Shown piece after piece: positions 1 to 52,000 of a stretch of 64,000 nucleotides of DNA. The notes under the pieces are model-generated. The model did no database searches, had not been told where the DNA came from, and saw nothing but the letters and a program-made list of their open reading frames with translations. The position numbers and the translations under genes are program-made. Origin of the DNA: a virus (Duplodnaviria > Caudoviricetes); the IMG/VR virus record IMGVR_UViG_3300042463_000545, positions 7,768-71,767 of that record; one strand, 5' to 3'. Within the stretch, counting starts at the first letter, position 1. Each line of letters opens with the position of its first letter.

Positions 1-1738
1 TCAATAGTTTCTCACCATCGCTACCACTTGTTACATAGTAACGAATGAGCTTATTGTAAATGGATGGCTCCATTCCTTTTCTATATCCCTCATAATGAAA
101 ATCACTGGTTGATTTCTGTCTTATACAAAAATCAAAAGGATTTCTATGAAGAATAATACTTTCAGAAATAGGAACACCACTAACAAAGTAAGACTCAAGA
201 GCAAGAGGGACAATTCTGGCGGATTTGTTTTTATGAAGTTCAAAATCCGTGAGAAAATCCCCTTTCTTTTTAATTTCTCCATCTGTTTTGATTGCTATGT
301 AGTCATTAACTGTTGAGAATATAATCTTTTTGTAATCAGCTCTCTCAAGCTCATATCCTGTAATCTTACACCACCAGTCATTAATCTTATTCATCTCAGC
401 GAGTTTGCTTTTATGAATATGGATTGTAACACCGTCAGTATTTGCTGATATCACACGTATGTCTTTAGTTTCATACGCTTCAATAAGCATCATCAAGGAC
501 AATTCTCCTGTGATGGTTGTAAACATAGTTAGTTGTCTATCATATATCCAACTATTCATGTCACTAGATTTACCATACACAGAGTTTACAGCAAGCTTCA
601 ACGCACCAACAATACCTTTAATCTTCTTATCATTCTTTGCAAAGGGCTTTAGTTCAAGACGTTTCTCATACATCTTTTTATAGCCTGTAAGGAACTCTTT
701 ACCTAAATGATATGGATACTGCTTATTGTTGATGATAATGGCAGGATAGTAGCTAGAAACGTCCCAGTCAATGATTAGATGATCTTCATCCTCCTCAAAA
801 ACTTCTGGTTTGTTTTCTGTGTGCAATCCACCTTTCATGAACGAATACACGTTGTCATAGAAGTGTATATGTTCCTTGAAATCATCTGTGAGCTCCAGAC
901 GCATCTTCTTAATCTTCTTAAGAAACTCTGTGAGTTGGACAGTCTTGAACTGTACATACGGAGCTATGCACTGGCTAATGAAGATATATTTTCTAAAGTG
1001 ACCTTTTCTAGGAAGTGTTTTGATATCAATCTTCTTCTCTTCAGAATAGTATTTCTTGATGATCTCATCACCAATTTTACTATCTGAATAGTTTATACAT
1101 GGAATATCAAACTCTTTTTCTATATCAAGTCTTAGCTGTATCTGATCATTACCCTTGTACAACGGATGATCTGTTTCACCTATGGTCACCTTGTAAAACT
1201 CATAAGTGGCCATAACATCATTCTTACAATACTGACGTGTGAGCTTTCTATCTTCTAGAGTCATTCCCACTTTTGTGTGGTGAATTGGCATCTCTTCAAT
1301 GTTCTCAAGATCCATTTCAAACTCTAGTCTCTTCAAACTAACACGCCTGTTCTTATTGTCAAAGTGATGTATCTTGAACAAATCAATCTGCTTGAGTGTA
1401 AGATCTTCTTCACGATATTCAGCAAACACATCATAATTAGCATCATGAATAACATCCTGCGCTTTCTGAGCAATCATACCTGCTACTTCTAGATTAGATT
1501 TTTCTCCCCAGTCATGACACTTTCTCAAGATCCATTCAACTACCTGGCTATCAAATCTTAGATTGTTGTAACCCACCCAATAGAAGTCTTTATACCTCTC
1601 TGAGAACTCCACAAACCTATCTAGATCGTATTTGCTTTTGCTCACCTCAAACTCATGATATGTGTTCTCGTGAGGAATATAAATCCCCACGAGAAACATT
1701 TCTTTTAGAGTTTCTATGTCATAGATTAAGACATTCAT
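1..1738 (-). CDS. polB: DNA polymerase family B (runs off the left edge; C-terminus missing)
   Basis: Not in the ORF track because no stop falls in the window. Manual translation from ATG at 1738 (overlapping the upstream TAA) gives MNVLIYDIETL (Exo I), GYNNLRFD (Exo II), DWDVSSYYP (motif A), KLAVNSVYGKS (motif B) and VISANTDGVT (motif C). Confidence 0.93.
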   Translation of the reverse strand, partial: MNVLIYDIETLKEMFLVGIYIPHENTYHEFEVSKSKYDLDRFVEFSERYKDFYWVGYNNLRFDSQVVEWILRKCHDWGEKSNLEVAGMIAQKAQDVIHDANYDVFAEYREEDLTLKQIDLFKIHHFDNKNRRVSLKRLEFEMDLENIEEMPIHHTKVGMTLEDRKLTRQYCKNDVMATYEFYKVTIGETDHPLYKGNDQIQLRLDIEKEFDIPCINYSDSKIGDEIIKKYYSEEKKIDIKTLPRKGHFRKYIFISQCIAPYVQFKTVQLTEFLKKIKKMRLELTDDFKEHIHFYDNVYSFMKGGLHTENKPEVFEEDEDHLIIDWDVSSYYPAIIINNKQYPYHLGKEFLTGYKKMYEKRLELKPFAKNDKKIKGIVGALKLAVNSVYGKSSDMNSWIYDRQLTMFTTITGELSLMMLIEAYETKDIRVISANTDGVTIHIHKSKLAEMNKINDWWCKITGYELERADYKKIIFSTVNDYIAIKTDGEIKKKGDFLTDFELHKNKSARIVPLALESYFVSGVPISESIILHRNPFDFCIRQKSTSDFHYEGYRKGMEPSIYNKLIRYYVTSGSDGEKLL

Positions 1739-3442: not shown

Positions 3443-3665
3443 TGTCTTTGTCTAGTTTATCTTGAATATCCATCCAATAATTATGACCTTCGTTTGATTT
3501 CTCCCAAACGAATGCAGAATAAAGAAATTCATTCTCGAATACATTCACAGTTGAAGGATCTATTGATACTTCTTGATTTGCCATATTAGCAAAGAATTTG
3601 TCTGCATTGTCCTTGTCCAGATATGAATTTGCCCAATGCTTGTAAGTGTTTAGTTGTTTTTCCAT
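3423..3665 (-). CDS. Hypothetical protein
   Basis: 80-aa ORF containing SAFVWEKSNEGHNYW; overlaps both neighbours. Confidence 0.7.
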   Translation of the reverse strand: MEKQLNTYKHWANSYLDKDNADKFFANMANQEVSIDPSTVNVFENEFLYSAFVWEKSNEGHNYWMDIQDKLDKDNGWVII

Positions 3666-4633: not shown

Positions 4634-4737
4634 TAGTCAGGGTAGGATTTGAACCTACACGCACATCTAAGGTTATCTCAATGTGCCATTACTTTTACAA
4701 GCAGTTCCAATGTGTGTCTCCATTCCACCACCTGACT
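4634..4737 (-). tRNA. Atypical tRNA-like RNA (Leu-type acceptor and D arm, enlarged anticodon arm, long variable arm; identity undetermined)
   Basis: Acceptor AGTCAGG/CCTGACT plus A; D arm GTGGAATGGAGACAC; T arm GTAGG-TTCAAAT-CCTAC; variable arm GCACAT...ATGTGC; anticodon arm CATT...AATG enclosing 18 nt. Confidence 0.7.
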
Positions 4738-8185: not shown

Positions 8186-8377
8186 TCATAACTCTGATTG
8201 ATTTAATTGTTCGTATTCAAGACGCATGCTCTCTTCATACTCATGGATTTCTTTCCATAGTTCTTCATCTGATTCGAAGTAACGTCTGTCCTCATTAGCA
8301 AAATACTCATTGATGGTGTCTTGTTTAATAGAAGAAATAGTCTTAGGAAACAAGAAAATTAAAATTGATTTTAACAT
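8186..8377 (-). CDS. Small hypothetical protein
   Basis: 63 aa, preceded by the AAACGCAC motif; first gene downstream of the ribozyme-like region. Confidence 0.6.
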   Translation of the reverse strand: MLKSILIFLFPKTISSIKQDTINEYFANEDRRYFESDEELWKEIHEYEESMRLEYEQLNQSEL

Positions 8378-8442
8378 GTTGTTGTGCGTTTAAATGAATA
8401 AATAAATGCAGGCTTTGCACCTGCTTGGGAGCATCTGACCCT

Positions 8443-8590
8443 CCAAATCCCTCTGCACTCAGTTGTAATTACTCATGGTTGGGTTCTATTTACCAGAGCC
8501 AAGGAACATAGTTCTCCTATAGATATTAGTCTGTAGTTAGTTTATTACAACTGCTCACCCTTGGGAAGTGAGTTATGGTGCATTAAATAG
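8443..8590 (-). ncRNA. Twister-like self-cleaving ribozyme candidate A
   Basis: Minus strand: UAA-UGCAC...CUCAC-UUCCCAAGG-GUGAG-CAGUUGUAAU[74 nt]AUUACAACUG-A-GUGCA-GA-GGGA. Twister order P2/P4/P5 with the UCCC:GGGA pseudoknot. P1 is weak. Confidence 0.72.
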
Positions 8591-8843
8591 TAGAGTTTCA
8601 CTTCGCATTATATCTCTACTAAACCCCGCTTCTAGGGTTAATACTTTTAGTATCATCAGAAGGTTCTAGTTTTCTTACACTCATAAACCTACAATTTGAG
8701 AAGCCATTTACAGGAATTCTTTAGTTGTTCATGTAACCTTTTTATTTTACACGGTGGTCAACCCGTGGATTCAAGAACCTATCTAGTATAGGATTACCTG
8801 CATATCAGTGCAAGTTTTACCAGTTAGATTATAACTAGAATAT

Positions 8844-9001
8844 CATTATCCCTCTGCGTTCAGTTGTAGCCCCACATCTTTGGCGATGTTATACATGCTG
8901 TCATCTATGTGACAGTAGGTCTACAGATTATATCCTAACTAGTAAGGACATAACCAACTACAACTGCCTGTCCTTGGGAAACAGGTTTGACGCATTATTA
9001 C
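8844..9001 (-). ncRNA. Twister-like self-cleaving ribozyme candidate B
   Basis: Minus strand: UAA-UGCGU...CCUGU-UUCCCAAGG-ACAGG-CAGUUGUAG[88 nt]CUACAACUG-A-ACGCA-GA-GGGA. Compensatory changes relative to copy A in P2, P4 and P5. Confidence 0.72.
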
Positions 9002-9187
9002 TCTCACAAGGCTGTAATCCTTGAATGTTGGTTATCCTTAGCCTGATGTCCATTGAATACTAGAATATTTAGATCTAGAGGCAAACACCTACAATTGGAT
9101 GAGAGTGTGTATAAATTGTATGTCCATCCTACATGCTTTCACATGCATCACGGATGGATTAAGGCACTACGTGGCCACATACAATTA

Positions 9188-9412
9188 TTAAAATGAACAA
9201 AGATCATCTAGACTATATCCATCTAATAATGAATCATCATCAGCAGATAAATCTAATTCAATAGATCTAACACCCATATTTTCCATAATGCTAATACAAT
9301 CTTTCATCTTTTGCGATCTTTCATCAACAAAAGAATAGTCTTTAGTATTAGCATTATCAATACTACTATCAATCAATGCATTCATTAATGATGGAGAGAT
9401 TATCAGTTCCAT
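9188..9412 (-). CDS. Small acidic protein (start revised to MELIISP)
   Basis: ATG at 9412 with an A/C-rich leader; acidic C-terminus. Confidence 0.55.
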   Translation of the reverse strand: MELIISPSLMNALIDSSIDNANTKDYSFVDERSQKMKDCISIMENMGVRSIELDLSADDDSLLDGYSLDDLCSF

Positions 9413-9764
9413 AACAACTAGTTTGTTAGTTAATGCTATATAAAATAGTGAATAGTAAAAACGACACTTACGAAAACACCTCATTATAATGTGTGTGGTG
9501 TCACTCCTACTCTTATTCACTCAACAAATTCTTTGTAAAGTACAACATGAAGTTTTAGTTTTCCCGTGTAAAACTTTATTAAATTGTACATTACCATAAA
9601 ACCATTGTACTTTAGTAAGGATGGACTAATTACACAGTCTCACACCATATACATACGCAACTGTATTTATGTATATGTCTGATTTGCACAGATGCATTGA
9701 CTGCGTAACAAGCCCACCCAAACGTTAGTACTCCCACCCTGTATATAAAAGAAGAAATAGTGGC

Positions 9765-12129: not shown

Positions 12130-14150
12130 ATCTAGAAAATGTTAAATACAGTGAGTGGTTGATTAACCAAACACGTCTTCCTGATAAGACATCAGAGGAA
12201 TACAAGCCCTTCTTTGACTTTCATAAGAAGCTGTGTCTTGATGGATTTATGATGGATGGTGTGTTCATCAATCCTTTTCTGTATTGGCATTTGAATCTTT
12301 GGCATACAGAAGTGGATGTTATAGATGACAGAGGACGCATCTATCAGAAATATGCCAATCCCTCACTCAGAGACAATGAATGGTTAGTTACGAATGAAAT
12401 AGACAGAGCCCATGCTGAGAAGCGTGGGTTGGTTATTTTGGGTATTAGACGTTTTGCTAAGTCTGTGCTTGAGGCTAGTTACATTGCTTGGGGAGCTACA
12501 TTCGATGAGAACTCACAGAACGTTATTGCTGGCTTGAATGCTCCAGATATTAAACTAATTACAGACAAGCTTGACAAGGGCCTCAACTTCCTTCCTGAAT
12601 ACTTTAGATGGCAGCGTGTAGAGGATAATTGGAAGAATCAGGTGACGTTAGGAATAAAGACAAAGGGAGGAGAGAGAATACCATTCTCTCAAATTCTTAT
12701 TCGTAACTTAGATGAGGGTAATAACGAAGAAGCTATTGCTGGTACAAAGCCACGTAAGCTCATTATTGATGAGATTGGTAAAGGATCTTTCTTGAGAGGC
12801 TTACAGGCTGCTGTTCCTGGTTTTACAACGCCATTTGGATGGGGCTGTTCCCCTATTCTTACAGGTACAGGTGGTGATATGAAGCGGTTTATGGATGCTA
12901 AGTCATTGATGTTTGATGTTGACAATTACAACTTCCTAACATACAATAACGAAGAGGATACAAAACGTGTACATGGGCTATTCATTTCTAACAAATATAG
13001 AATGGAAGCCAAAGAAGATTCTACATTAGGAGAATATGTAAAAGCTTCTAAGAATAGCGATCTTCATAATGTGAAGATGTTGGTTTCTAATGAAGAGAAA
13101 GCTGACAAAATCACCACTGATAACTTAGAAAGATTAAAGAAAGCTGGCGATAGAGTGGCGTTTCTAAAAGAGAAGATGTACTATCCACAGAAGGTGGATG
13201 ACATATTCCTAAACGAAGACACTAACATCTTTGATATAGAAGCTGCTAAGAGACAGAAAATCAGACTATTGCAGAACGAAAGAACAGGAACACCTGTTAT
13301 ATTATTTAGTGACGAAGGAAAGATAGGACATGAGTTCACAGACAACCTACCTATTACAAACTTTCCTCTCAAGAGTACAGATAGAAAAGATGCTCCTGTA
13401 GTGATATATGAGTTTCCTATAGAGAATCCTCCTTATGGATTATACGTTGCAGGAGTTGACCCCTATAGACAAGGACAGGCAAAGTATTCAACTTCACTAG
13501 GTTCTGTGTATATTTACAAGAGAATGCACGATCTCACTGGTGAAAAATATCAGGATATGTTCGTAGCTTCGTATTGTGCAAGACCTGATAAGAAGGAAAC
13601 GTGGGAAGAACAGGCTAGATTACTGATTAAATATTACAACGCTAGAGCTCTTTGTGAAAATGACGATATTTCGTTCATTGAATACATGAAAAGCAAAGGT
13701 GACGCACACTATCTAGAGAAGCAACCACAATGGTTGTTAGAAGTGATTCCTAATACTACTGTGAAACGAGAGTATGGAATTCACAGATCAGCTCAGAAAA
13801 TAATTGACTATCTACATACATCGTTGAAAAGATATATGGAAGATGTTATTTATTCTGAGAAAGATGATAATGGCATTGTAACTAGAGAAGTTACAGGGGT
13901 GAGTAAGATATTTGACCCAATGCTTCTTGAAGAAATCATCCAATACAACGATGAGGGAAACTTCGATAGGATTGTAGCAGCAGAACTTGCTATAGCTCAG
14001 GCACTTAAGATGGACCCCATATTAGGAAAGATTGGAGGAACTAGTGATGAACGAGTTAAATCGTTATATTCAAAAAAGTTAAAGAGTGGGAAGCTGTTTA
14101 GCAGCTCTAAAAATATGTTCAATACGAGGAAAAATAAATTATTTTCATAA
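12126..14150 (+). CDS. terL: Terminase large subunit
   Basis: Walker A variant GIRRFAKS, Walker B LIIDEIG, LTGTGG coupling motif, nuclease YVAGVDPY, CEND and NFDRIVA. Confidence 0.95.
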   Translation: MNLENVKYSEWLINQTRLPDKTSEEYKPFFDFHKKLCLDGFMMDGVFINPFLYWHLNLWHTEVDVIDDRGRIYQKYANPSLRDNEWLVTNEIDRAHAEKRGLVILGIRRFAKSVLEASYIAWGATFDENSQNVIAGLNAPDIKLITDKLDKGLNFLPEYFRWQRVEDNWKNQVTLGIKTKGGERIPFSQILIRNLDEGNNEEAIAGTKPRKLIIDEIGKGSFLRGLQAAVPGFTTPFGWGCSPILTGTGGDMKRFMDAKSLMFDVDNYNFLTYNNEEDTKRVHGLFISNKYRMEAKEDSTLGEYVKASKNSDLHNVKMLVSNEEKADKITTDNLERLKKAGDRVAFLKEKMYYPQKVDDIFLNEDTNIFDIEAAKRQKIRLLQNERTGTPVILFSDEGKIGHEFTDNLPITNFPLKSTDRKDAPVVIYEFPIENPPYGLYVAGVDPYRQGQAKYSTSLGSVYIYKRMHDLTGEKYQDMFVASYCARPDKKETWEEQARLLIKYYNARALCENDDISFIEYMKSKGDAHYLEKQPQWLLEVIPNTTVKREYGIHRSAQKIIDYLHTSLKRYMEDVIYSEKDDNGIVTREVTGVSKIFDPMLLEEIIQYNDEGNFDRIVAAELAIAQALKMDPILGKIGGTSDERVKSLYSKKLKSGKLFSSSKNMFNTRKNKLFS

Positions 14151-49000: not shown

Positions 49001-52000
49001 TGATGCTAGAGCTAAGAAGGGTACAAGACTAAAGTCTTCTGTAAGAAAAGCTCTTGATGCAGCAATGCGTTTGTCAAGAGCTAAGGAAGATCTATTGCAA
49101 GAAATTGCTGAACTAGAATCTCAGAAAGAAGATGGTGAGTTACTTCTTGCATACTTGCAGGATGCAGTTCAAAACATTTCAGAATTTACTGAAGGCCAAC
49201 AATCTACTATTGATCAATTAGAGTTTGAGACAGAACTTCTAAAAGAATCAATAGAGGAGAATGGTAAACAAATTAATGCAATCACAAGACTTGCAGATGA
49301 GATTGATAATACAATTGATTCTGCTATAAAATTCTTGAGAAGTGTAATTGATGAGTTTGAAAAAAACTATCCAAAGGCTCCTACAATCATGGGAGTGGAG
49401 TTCAATGAATTCCTGAAAGCTAATCCAAACTTCTTAAAACTAAAACCAAATTTCATTTCAGACTTGCGTGAGTTAGAAAGACTCATTGCTGAAGTGGAGG
49501 ATATGGAAATTGCTGTAAATGAAGAGAAGTTAAATAAGGTTCTAGATGATATAAAATCATTAAAAGAATCTCTTCAGACAGAAGTGAATGAGCTAAGATT
49601 CAAGGAAGAACTTCTTTCAAAAATGAAGAAGGCTTACCAAGATTATCAATCTAACATTCTTGAAGAAGAAAAACTTGCTAAGGGTGATGCTCTAAGAAAA
49701 CAAATCTTAGGCACTGCTGATAATGATAATCCAGTTCCTGTTGTGTTTGATAGGGAGTTTGAGGTTGATGCTAAGAAGCCTGTATCTATTATCCCTAGAG
49801 CTACAATACCAGTTGATAGAGGGAAGGATCATCAAAAGAGAGCTCAAAGATTTGGAATGAACTTCCAATCGTTTGGTGAAAATCAAAAGAAAAACATCAA
49901 AGGTGTCTACATCACTTCAAAGAACCAGGATCAATTGATTCCTGGATTGATGGACTTCTTGAGAACTGATGAGAATGGTATTAATGAAACAGTTGATGCA
50001 AACAAGATCATTGCTATGGTCATGGTTGATATGTCAACTGGCGAACCTGTATTGGTTAATGAGAGTGGATTACCTCTTACAGAAGAACAACTACAAGATC
50101 CTCTTAACAACTCCATCTACCAAGTATTTCCTTTAGAAGATCTTAAGTGGTCTGGAGACTACGGTGATAAGTCAATGTTTGCTGAGAGTGTTTCAGAGAA
50201 TGTAAGAAGTGAAGTTAGAAAGCAATATGCTCAATGGAGAAGTGAAGTTCTCAAGATAGAAGATCTTTCTGAAATCCATTCTATTGATGTATCATTTGGT
50301 TTTCCAAAAGTTAACCAAGATGCAGAAGGAAAGAAACTTTACGACACTAGAACAAGTGTTCAAGATGCTGGTCTAGTTACAGACTACGATATTGACAACT
50401 CTCCAATAATCACTGTTGCGACAAGTGATGAATCTATCATTAGAGGCATAAGTGTAACTAAGTCTGCTCCAGGTAGAGTGTTTCTTGATATGGGCAATGG
50501 ACTTGTTCCATTGAACAATAGACAACATACTAGAAAAGAAGCTGAGACAATATTTAACGCTATTCTACAGTTTTCAAAGAACGCTCTTGATAAGTCTAAG
50601 GGTGTTAATGATGATCAAAGTAAGACACTTTTATCATTCTTGAAATCTGTTGTGTATTGGGGAATACCAGTTAAAGAAGCTGGATTTAGTAGCGTCTTCT
50701 TCAGAGATGGGAAGTTGTACATGTCTGGAAAAGGGGCAGCCTTCCCATTCACACCATCAGGTCTTTTACAAAACAAGGAGGACATCATTGCTACATTACA
50801 AGGAATGTATCACAATGTAAATGGTAAATATGCTAGAGAAGTTGGAATAGAATATGAGCAGATTACAAACATCTCTGAAGATGGTACAATTGAATCTGTT
50901 ACCTGGCCAAACTATCAATCCTATTTACTTTCTACAACCACTCCTGATGGTAAGCAAAGATCTGGAGAACAACTTCCTCTTTCTACCTACATGCGTCCTC
51001 TAGAAGGACCAAGTGATGTAAACAGATCTGGAATCTACTTCTACACTACAGACACTGAGGATGCTTACATTATTCCAGAAGCAAAGAAAGAAACTAAGCT
51101 TGCACCAGTAGCAACTGAAAGTGCTGAGCCTACATTAATTCTTGATGGTGAAACACCAAATCAATTAAGATCATCTAAGACAAATAGAATTATTGTTTTC
51201 GCAGCACCTTCTGTAAATCCAACATTAGAAAATATAAAAATATATAAGTCTGATGACTTAGCTGCTGTCATGGTAGATTTTGAAAAAGAAGGTAAAGATC
51301 CAAAAGTTGCTATTAAGGAAATGGTTCTTAAGGTTGTTCAAAGACAAATTCAATCACAAACACCAAGTCCTAAAACTGAGAAAACCAGAGAAAGATTATT
51401 TGGAAAACAAGCAGCTAGCACTCCTGCTACTAAAGAGGCTGAACAACCTAAAGAATCTAAGACTGAAGGAACTAGAGCTCGTTTATTTGGCAACCAACCA
51501 CCTATTATTGAAGAAGAAGAAAGTGACGAATCTGCTGATGATATTTTAAATAAATTTAACCCTAATCCAAAGAACGATAAGGCTGACTACAGAGAAGTAG
51601 TTGAGAAGCAGGCCAAGTCTATGAAGATTGAGGACTGGAATGAAATAGAAGCTTTCTGGAAAAAAGCTATTCCTGGTGTTCCATTATATAGACTTAAGAA
51701 TTTAATTCAAGCTACTAATGGTGCTCAAGCTTGGGGCATGTTGAAGAATGGTGCAATCTATGTATATGAAAATGCAGAGGTGGGTACATTCTACCACGAA
51801 GTTTTTGAAGCTGTATGGAAGATGTTCACTGACCCAGCTGAGCAACAATCTATTATTAAGGAGTTCAAATCTAGAACAGGAACATTTGTTGATAGACCTA
51901 CTGGTGAGACAGTTAAATATTCAGAAGCCACACCTCAGCAAATCAAAGAACAACTTGCTGAAGAGTTTAGAGACTATGTACTATTCAATAAGGTGCCTAC

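Follow-up and report, generated by a model that had tools for sequence, protein, structure and literature searches.

A pair of twister-like elements in the leftward early arm of an uncultured crAss-like phage, and the phage-specific family of candidate ribozymes to which they belong

The stretch of DNA considered here (the window) comprises 64,000 nucleotides (nt) of the 71.8-kb record IMGVR_UViG_3300042463_000545 (positions 7,768-71,767; the record is 62% complete), and comes from an uncultured phage with a terminase and portal of the crAss-like type; by comparison of the terminase, its nearest cultured relatives are Leptolyngbya phage Lbo-JY46 (39.8% identity) and then crAss-like phages of Cellulophaga, Flavobacterium and Bacteroides. 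Our subject is a pair of twister-like elements, A and B, which both lie on the minus strand in the leftward arm of small genes, between the open reading frames (ORFs) 9520-9188 and 8377-8186. Across 8377-9188, neither strand holds an ORF of 40 or more amino acids, save for a 47-amino-acid frame on the plus strand at 9053-9196.

The pattern TTCCCAAGGNNNNNCAGTTGTA, with up to three mismatches allowed, matches the window three times (two of them exactly) against 0.12 expected, and none of 100 shuffled sequences reached three. R1, a covariance model built from the copies of other phages alone, scores B at 94.8 bits (E 3.2e-24) and A at 84.4 bits (E 2.8e-21), and a search of the whole 71.8-kb record with this model found no copy beyond these two. 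We take a third R1 match, at 50274-50340 on the plus strand (20.6 bits), to be due to chance; it sits inside a 4219-amino-acid ORF and lacks the P5 helix. A preliminary description of this DNA had pointed to two elements in the same orientation that share a core, and both are indeed there; their parts are set out below, with the stems assigned from the sequence and the pairing of loop L4 from covariation across the family.

8839-9008 (core 8997-8850), minus strand: putative ribozyme A, whole R1 match; predicted cut U8997^A8996, then A8995
8994-8990 with 8859-8855, minus strand: A, helix P2, UGCGU with ACGCA
8985-8981 with 8971-8967, minus strand: A, helix P4, CCUGU with ACAGG
8972-8980, minus strand: A, loop L4, UUCCCAAGG; CCC 8978-8976 predicted to pair with GGG 8852-8850 (pseudoknot T1)
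8966-8959 with 8868-8861, minus strand: A, base of P5, CAGUUGUA with UACAACUG
8869-8958, minus strand: A, 90-nt variable insert in P5; P5 domain 8966-8861, -37.6 kcal/mol, z -3.99
8850-8854, minus strand: A, 3' strand GAGGG; G8854 is the conserved G after P2, a candidate general base
8438-8596 (core 8585-8449), minus strand: putative ribozyme B, whole R1 match; predicted cut U8585^A8584
8582-8578 with 8458-8454, minus strand: B, helix P2, UGCAC with GUGCA
8572-8568 with 8558-8554, minus strand: B, helix P4, CUCAC with GUGAG
8559-8567, minus strand: B, loop L4, UUCCCAAGG; CCC 8565-8563 predicted to pair with GGG 8451-8449 (T1)
8553-8546 with 8467-8460, minus strand: B, base of P5
8468-8545, minus strand: B, 78-nt variable insert in P5; P5 domain -20.4 kcal/mol, z -2.48
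8453-8449, minus strand: B, 3' strand GAGGG

Both elements share one order of parts: a variable P1, the motif N^AA, a 5-bp P2, a linker C-A-N-N(-N) and a 5-bp P4 capped by UUCCCAAGG, after which P5 follows directly with its unrelated insert, then one A, the 3' strand of P2 and GAGGG. The base of P5 (CAGUUGUA/UACAACUG) is conserved, P5 is present in all 117 aligned members of the family, and the P5 domains of A and B are predicted to form closed, three-branch folds (z -3.99 and -2.48, respectively). The compensatory differences between the stems of the two copies, on which the preliminary description had relied, hold for P2 and P4, as does its remark that the P5 inserts are unrelated (90 nt in A, 78 nt in B); the deviations from the twister consensus that it listed (a 5-bp P2, a 9-nt L4 ending in GG, and a weak P1 with three of five pairs in each copy) are also real.

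Relatives were sought with a 22-nt pattern consisting of L4, five free bases and the start of P5, which matched at least 118 IMG/VR contigs; among the 121 matches listed, 101 have the exact closing strand TACAACTG within 260 nt and lie whole inside the stored locus, representing 91 distinct sequences. The 37 members with the shortest inserts were aligned with MAFFT (alignment A1) and R1 was built from A1, with the window copies excluded; applied to the first 100 loci, it gave 120 matches. A larger alignment, A4, holds 117 matches from the window and 99 chosen loci, L4-variant loci included. As A4 was fitted to the model it favours structure, but the MAFFT alignment A1 is likewise paired at 100% in P4 and 98.4% in P2. 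Across the family the P5 inserts run from 3 to 160 nt and are unrelated to one another; the minimal natural member L079:2529-2609 measures 81 nt and has a P1 of 9 bp.

In A4 (n=117), all cells of P4 (100%) are paired and each of its five pairs shows double changes; P2 is paired in 99.7% of cells with double changes at three of five, and P1 in 70.9% with double changes at five of five; the closing pair of P1 is U-G in 34 members. Taken over the whole structure, 93.5% of cells are paired, as against 27-44% when the 3' partners are slid by one to three columns, and none of 500 shuffled controls reached any of the observed measures. Several core columns were left free by every search pattern, and are nonetheless nearly invariant. 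Of the 116 members with a letter there, all have AA directly after the cut site, 114 have the G that follows P2, 115 the A next to that G, and 113 a U just before the cut. The AA and G columns are the counterparts of two conserved residues of twister given in PMC5408937, the adenine at its scissile bond and a guanine; this conservation is one of sequence, with the cut site itself placed by homology.

The T1 pseudoknot called for a separate treatment, as it was invariant in the first set of members because the search pattern had fixed L4. Loci were instead picked by a changed L4 alone, leaving the 3' strand free to vary, and real elements were told from chance matches by the complementarity of P4 and the presence of the P5 closing strand. 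Where L4 carries CAC, all 19 complete elements have GAGUG; where it carries CCA, 16 of 17 place a U opposite the A (15 as GAUGG, one as GCUGG) and one keeps GGG; and the single assessable element with CCU has AGG. These counts omit L103, L134, L135, L187 and L217 (loci are numbered L), which have no 3' strand in reach, and the decayed copies L153, L207 and L190. In A4, 99.7% of T1 cells are paired, and the two variable pairs read C-G 93 and A-U 23 for the one, and C-G 96, A-U 18, U-A 1 and other 1 for the second. At the level of aligned sequence, the T1 pseudoknot covaries as predicted, with CCC facing GGG, CAC facing GUG and CCA facing UGG.

For the second pseudoknot, T2, the penultimate G of L4 faces the C after P2 as C-G in 115 members and U-G in two; a search for elements in which this G varies returned 18 pattern matches, none of them a real element. 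The first T2 pair is C-G in 89, U-G in 26 and U-A in two, and both canonical elements in which the final L4 nucleotide is A have a U facing it.

The family occupies a characteristic place in its genomes. Of 165 model matches, 147 overlap an ORF of at least 80 amino acids by no more than 30 nt, and are in this sense intergenic; among the 115 that have an ORF on either side, 87 share the orientation of both neighbours and none is opposed to both, and 30 of the 136 with a downstream ORF on the same strand end within 60 nt of its start. More than one copy is found on 27 of 134 locus-strands, mostly 164-723 nt apart, so the tandem arrangement is a habit of the family and not a peculiarity of the window.

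So far, members have been met only in uncultured phages, many of them from freshwater samples to judge by the record titles. Neither the 901-nt region nor the 51-nt 5' core had a blastn match among GenBank phages, and R1 found nothing in the cultured relatives Lbo-JY46 and Cellulophaga phage phi17:2 beyond one partial match of 13.7 bits. In prokaryote genomes, seven of 52 pattern matches look real, on six contigs from metagenome bins (five of these 2.6-4 kb in length), the remainder being at the estimated chance level. Roth et al. 2014 is said to have supplementary lists of twisters, among which members of this family could be present. In the literature on twister ribozymes in phages we found no description of the family, a statement that does not extend to the supplementary twister lists (PMC11662667), which could hold members.

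According to PMC5408937, twister is a double pseudoknot in which P1, P2 and P4 are essential and P0, P3 and P5 optional, with T1 formed by three pairs between L4 and L1, T2 by L2 with two nucleotides of L4, a cut on the 5' side of a conserved A, and a conserved G. The elements described here match the type-P1 form (RF03160) in the order of their parts (P1, N^AA, P2, linker, P4 with a pseudoknot-forming L4, P5, P2', GAGGG, P1'), in a three-pair T1 that joins CCC in L4 to GGG in the 3' strand, in the conserved A after the cut site and G after P2, in a variable and often weak P1, and in the frequent presence of P0-like hairpins just upstream. They also share the L4 core UCCCAAG, which is that of the rice P4/L4; the rice 16-mer, as shown in PMC11662667, carries UCCCAAGC where the phage family has UUCCCAAGG. 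The same paper gives the 5' strand of the two-pair pseudoknot as 'NC', into which the CC or UC of the phage family fits, and reports that natural twisters tolerate an imperfect P1, P2 and P4, that all the P5-bearing twisters tested cleaved to more than 0.80, and that P0 hairpins roughly halved cleavage (0.40 against 0.85).

Other features set the elements apart from type P1. The phage family goes unrecognised by the Rfam twister models, has five pairs in P2 and not four, and has a 9-nt L4 with an extra 5' U that ends in GG and not GC, facing CC or UC in place of GC; its P5 is obligatory, with a nearly invariant base and unrelated inserts of 3-160 nt; P4 abuts P5 without a linker, and a single A separates P5 from P2'; and the variant has been met only in contigs of uncultured phages.

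Synthesising these findings, the fold, its covariation and the intergenic, gene-co-oriented position of the elements are established, and we consider it likely that A and B represent a phage-specific subfamily of divergent, self-cleaving twister-class ribozymes of type P1, with an obligatory P5, and that they probably cut the early message. Since the Rfam match fails and the four-pair P2 of twister is replaced, we regard them as an uncatalogued variant of the twister kind and not as a member of the catalogued class. We infer cleavage, its exact site and any effect on RNA stability or expression. Each element would fold as the transcript of the leftward small-gene arm is made, with the CCC of L4 pairing to the GGG of GAGGG (T1) and the final G(G) of L4 to the C(C) after P2 (T2); by homology with solved twisters, cuts would then fall at U8997/A8996 and U8585/A8584, leaving a 2',3'-cyclic phosphate and a 5'-OH. 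Three products are anticipated: the upstream message, ending just past a hairpin; a 412-nt piece consisting of ribozyme A and a hairpin-rich spacer; and an RNA headed by ribozyme B, which either stops at the hairpin 8424-8408 or continues into the ORF 8377-8186. Any decay resistance of its 5'-OH end would depend on the RNases of the host.

A number of observations weigh against this reading. Scanned against Rfam at the gathering threshold, the whole window yields a tRNA-like match only and no twister; at E<=10, no ribozyme family is found in window 8200-9300, in five whole loci, or in a 104-nt member and an 81-nt minimal member, each scanned alone; and RF03160 run on the record itself gives no candidate. 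The twister models (types P1, P3 and P5) to which the preliminary description had looked for confirmation therefore do not support it, and because the 104-nt and 81-nt scans do list matches of 11-13 bits to unrelated families, those models must fall below that level or be filtered out. P2 has five covarying pairs where twister has four, and PMC5408937 notes that changing the number of pairs may disturb the active site. The nucleotide that faces the last G of L4 also covaries perfectly with the 3' strand of P2 (C-G 89, U-A 27, U-G 1), so that the fifth P2 pair uses a nucleotide needed by a two-pair T2, which makes T2 uncertain; judged by covariation, either P2 comprises five pairs and leaves T2 a single one, or the fifth pair of P2 forms in alternation with the first pair of T2. 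We suggest that the number of stacked P2 and T2 layers, five plus one, may equal the canonical four plus two. The P1 of both window copies is poor, as noted above; a P0-like hairpin stops 3 nt before the cut site predicted for B; and some copies in the family are decayed or have a changed G (e.g. L027, L068 and L015), from which it follows that activity need not extend to all of them. In relatives, contigs from RNA libraries span the homologous cut site, a point of little weight in either direction, as contigs cannot show ends and DNA may be present, and thus they are uninformative as to cleavage or expression. On the other side stands the covariation across the family, T1 pseudoknot included, which upholds the twister-like fold of the preliminary description.

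The surroundings of the two elements bear on what their cleavage would release, and the relevant features are as follows.

8586-8849, minus strand: spacer between the ribozymes, ending in hairpins 8639-8622 and 8621-8588; its last ~55 nt are shared with L097, ~200 nt are not
8408-8424, minus strand: terminator-like hairpin GCAGG...CCUGC, then AUUUAUUUAU, ~25 nt downstream of ribozyme B
9007-9023, minus strand: hairpin CAAGG-AUUACAG-CCUUG, 10 nt upstream of the predicted cut site of A; weak (-4.4 kcal/mol, z -0.54)
9116-9189, minus strand: conserved structured module of ~74 nt, just after the stop codon of ORF 9188-9520

Between 8585 and 8846 the spacer holds no ORF of 40 or more amino acids; its fold is only modestly better than that of shuffled sequences (z -1.84), with two good hairpins at 8586-8640 (z -2.90). 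Between the same conserved flanks, L065 has a single ribozyme, and L097 has an A-like copy directly after the 74-nt module, the two hairpins of the window (8639-8588) and then a B-like copy, the model starts lying ~195 nt apart; the window carries ~105 nt more ahead of A and ~200 nt more within the spacer. Of ~74 aligned columns in the module at 9189-9116, 68 are invariant among the window, L097 and L065, and the first ribozyme follows it directly in both relatives. The window and L065 have in common a downstream block of GAGGGAUUUGG..., two hairpins and the start of the next gene. With regard to the 412-nt RNA put forward in the preliminary description, the arithmetic (A8996 to U8585) is right and cleavage by both copies would release it, but relatives do not conserve this unit. 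Because the spacer and the layout of copies vary, the ribozymes behave as movable cassettes, and the fragment is simply whatever happens to lie between cuts.

Other features of these flanks recur in the family. The terminator-like hairpin is found directly upstream of another member in L081, and the CCUUGUGAGAGUA context upstream of members in L050 and L091. Small hairpins also recur directly before the predicted cut sites (in the flanks of L058, L083, L034 and L112, and at L079:1380-1400), one of them with a covarying 5-bp stem and a conserved 11-nt loop UGA..A.AAAC, others carrying GGGUAAUCA, CCUUGUGAGAGUA or UGCGAAGUGAAAC; these may be P0-like stems, or protectors of the 3' end of the upstream product. 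The inner hairpins of the 74-nt module can be enclosed by an outer stem of 8 bp, UUGUAUGU/ACAUACAA.

Parts of the same scaffold occur in relatives of different architecture. A scan with the 3' half alone found 119 loci, ~72 of which were already in the canonical set, leaving 47 new loci with 50 matches; 16 of these matches, being without an exact P5 5' strand within 330 nt, were left unclassified. In some 20 of the 50 ('Type 2'; L328-L372, e.g. L337:622-778 and L340:1758-1922, L097:9871-10021 on the minus strand, and L001:7445-7636), a conserved UUAAUCAG is joined directly to the L4 sequence and followed by the P4 3' strand, P5, GUGCA and GAGGG; these matches have no cut-site loop and neither the P2 nor the P4 5' strand, such that two conserved strands have no partner in cis. 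About 10 of the 50 ('Type 3'; L330:11778-11945 and 12497-12655, L326, L327, L346, L357, L359 and L366) have CCCUU before the P2 strand and a loop of 2-6 nt instead of L4; here CCCUUUGCAC and GUGCAGAGGG are predicted by RNAfold to form one continuous helix of ~11 bp that closes a three-way junction with the P5 base of the ribozymes, and there is neither a cleavage loop nor a pseudoknot. The P5 base and 3' strand are common to cleaving-type and non-cleaving-type architectures, which hints at a separate role for the P5 domain.

Four public sequencing runs contain only 6-9% of the sampled words of the sequence, and their contigs for the most part span conserved cores from relatives whose P5 inserts are different. 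Contigs of relatives from the RNA libraries (runs X1 and X3; window positions 8452/8852 and 8847/9185) join the modules in other orders: at one joint a B-type core is followed by the downstream spacer of A, and at the other an A-type ribozyme is followed by AAA and then by sequence that lies upstream of the 74-nt module in the window. Such joints fit a shuffling of cassettes among related phages.

It could be argued that the elements are folded modules without catalytic activity, in which the scaffold does no more than display the P5 insert or bind a protein of the phage or host, and whose conservation serves folding or binding. In favour of this are the failure of the Rfam twister models and the occurrence of the same P5 base and GUGCAGAGGG strand in two architectures unable to form the twister core; moreover, all eight pairs of the P5 base never vary in A1, an invariance for which a plain helix has no need. 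We nevertheless think this unlikely, as the positions with a catalytic part in twister, namely the cut-site AA and the G and A that follow P2, hardly change (114-116 of 116 members keep them) though formally unpaired, T1 is maintained by compensatory change, and most loci have the canonical architecture (~72 of the 119 in the 3'-half scan). That the conservation instead reflects a DNA-level repeat, whether a mobile or a recombination element, and is owed to DNA function or recent spread and not to RNA structure, we find scarcely credible. Close relatives do have one, two or three copies between shared flanks, the contigs of relatives join modules in other orders, and identity of the core is high across many contigs; yet compensatory changes in P1, P2, P4 and T1 preserve pairing on one strand only, the G-U pairs (such as the 34 U-G at the P1 closing pair) can pair only in RNA of that strand, and the co-orientation with both flanking genes (87 of 115, with none against both) would find no ready place in such an account. 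Twister-sister (RF02681) resembles the family as a small self-cleaving class often found in phage-related DNA and in tandem between genes, but it cuts in the opposite loop strand and forms no pseudoknot, as described in PMC5408937; the phage elements have a covarying T1 and a twister-side N^A. We reject this identity on the strength of T1, and the scans at E<=10 contain no RF02681 match either.

A further proposal, already made in part in the preliminary description, concerns the fate of the 412-nt RNA, which two cuts would free as part of a circular-RNA cassette, its ends being joined into a stable circle by a host RtcB-type ligase or by reversal of the ribozyme. Given the twister chemistry set out in PMC5408937, a fragment released by two cuts on the same strand would have both a 5'-OH and a 2',3'-cyclic phosphate, and tandem copies 164-723 nt apart do recur in the family. 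Viroid-like RNAs and retrozymes offer a precedent of sorts, in that two same-sense ribozymes there would likewise release a unit RNA with 5'-OH and cyclic-phosphate ends (such systems are reviewed in PMC7761336); in those systems it is one unit that is repeated, so the ends are brought together by the ribozyme's own helix, whereas the phage copies flank unrelated, non-conserved sequence in the operon of a double-stranded DNA phage. Between the cut sites the unit varies in length and content even among close relatives. The record, 62% complete, encodes no RtcB (PF01139) or RNA ligase (PF09414), a result that has no bearing on the host; by eye, no helix sets the 3' end (...CUCUACUAUUU) beside the 5' end or on the P1 3' strand of A; and no contig contains an 8585-to-8996 junction. 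The lone backward joint, 8852 to 8452, is in a 229-nt contig of 93-95% identity, falls inside the shared CAGAGGGAU core, and can be explained by an assembly switch or by a relative whose modules are ordered differently. With nothing found that specifically favours it, we judge circularisation very improbable.

Returning to self-cleaving ribozymes, we also put forward, as a tentative and rather doubtful extension, that the variant serves as a self-trimming carrier of small RNAs more than as a signal for mRNA processing, each copy presenting a different structured cargo in the conserved P5 socket. Tandem copies would cut the early transcript into separate, ribozyme-capped non-coding RNAs, the 412-nt piece being one example; the same P5 socket would be used by the non-cleaving three-way-junction relatives and by the 5'-truncated form, and the 3' strands of P2 and P4 in the truncated form could pair with, and cut, a target in trans.

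The family amounts to a large, uncatalogued, phage-specific subfamily of the twister kind, if our assignment is right, with an obligatory and sequence-conserved P5, unrelated inserts, frequent tandem copies and a fixed place between early genes. The role of twister ribozymes in bacteria and phages is stated to be still unknown in PMC6765202, and the family provides many natural variants with which to ask what twister cleavage is for. It would also indicate that catalogues based on covariance models miss real members of a well-studied ribozyme class and, for the source phage itself, it predicts cut sites in the leftward early transcript and the non-coding pieces that would result.

Some minor observations concern other RNAs of these phages. 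In the phage locus L112, where a ribozyme and a tRNA are also present, positions 3494-3643 (minus strand) match the alpha-proteobacterial model of two-piece transfer-messenger RNA weakly (25.6 bits, E 7e-4, below the gathering score). In the window, 4634-4737 (minus strand) matches the Rfam tRNA model at 40.3 bits with the acceptor, D and T arms intact and 43 nt in place of the 11 of the anticodon arm; ARAGORN made no tRNA call anywhere in the window. The related locus L035 has a similar tRNA, interrupted by 30 nt, at 817-902 (minus strand).

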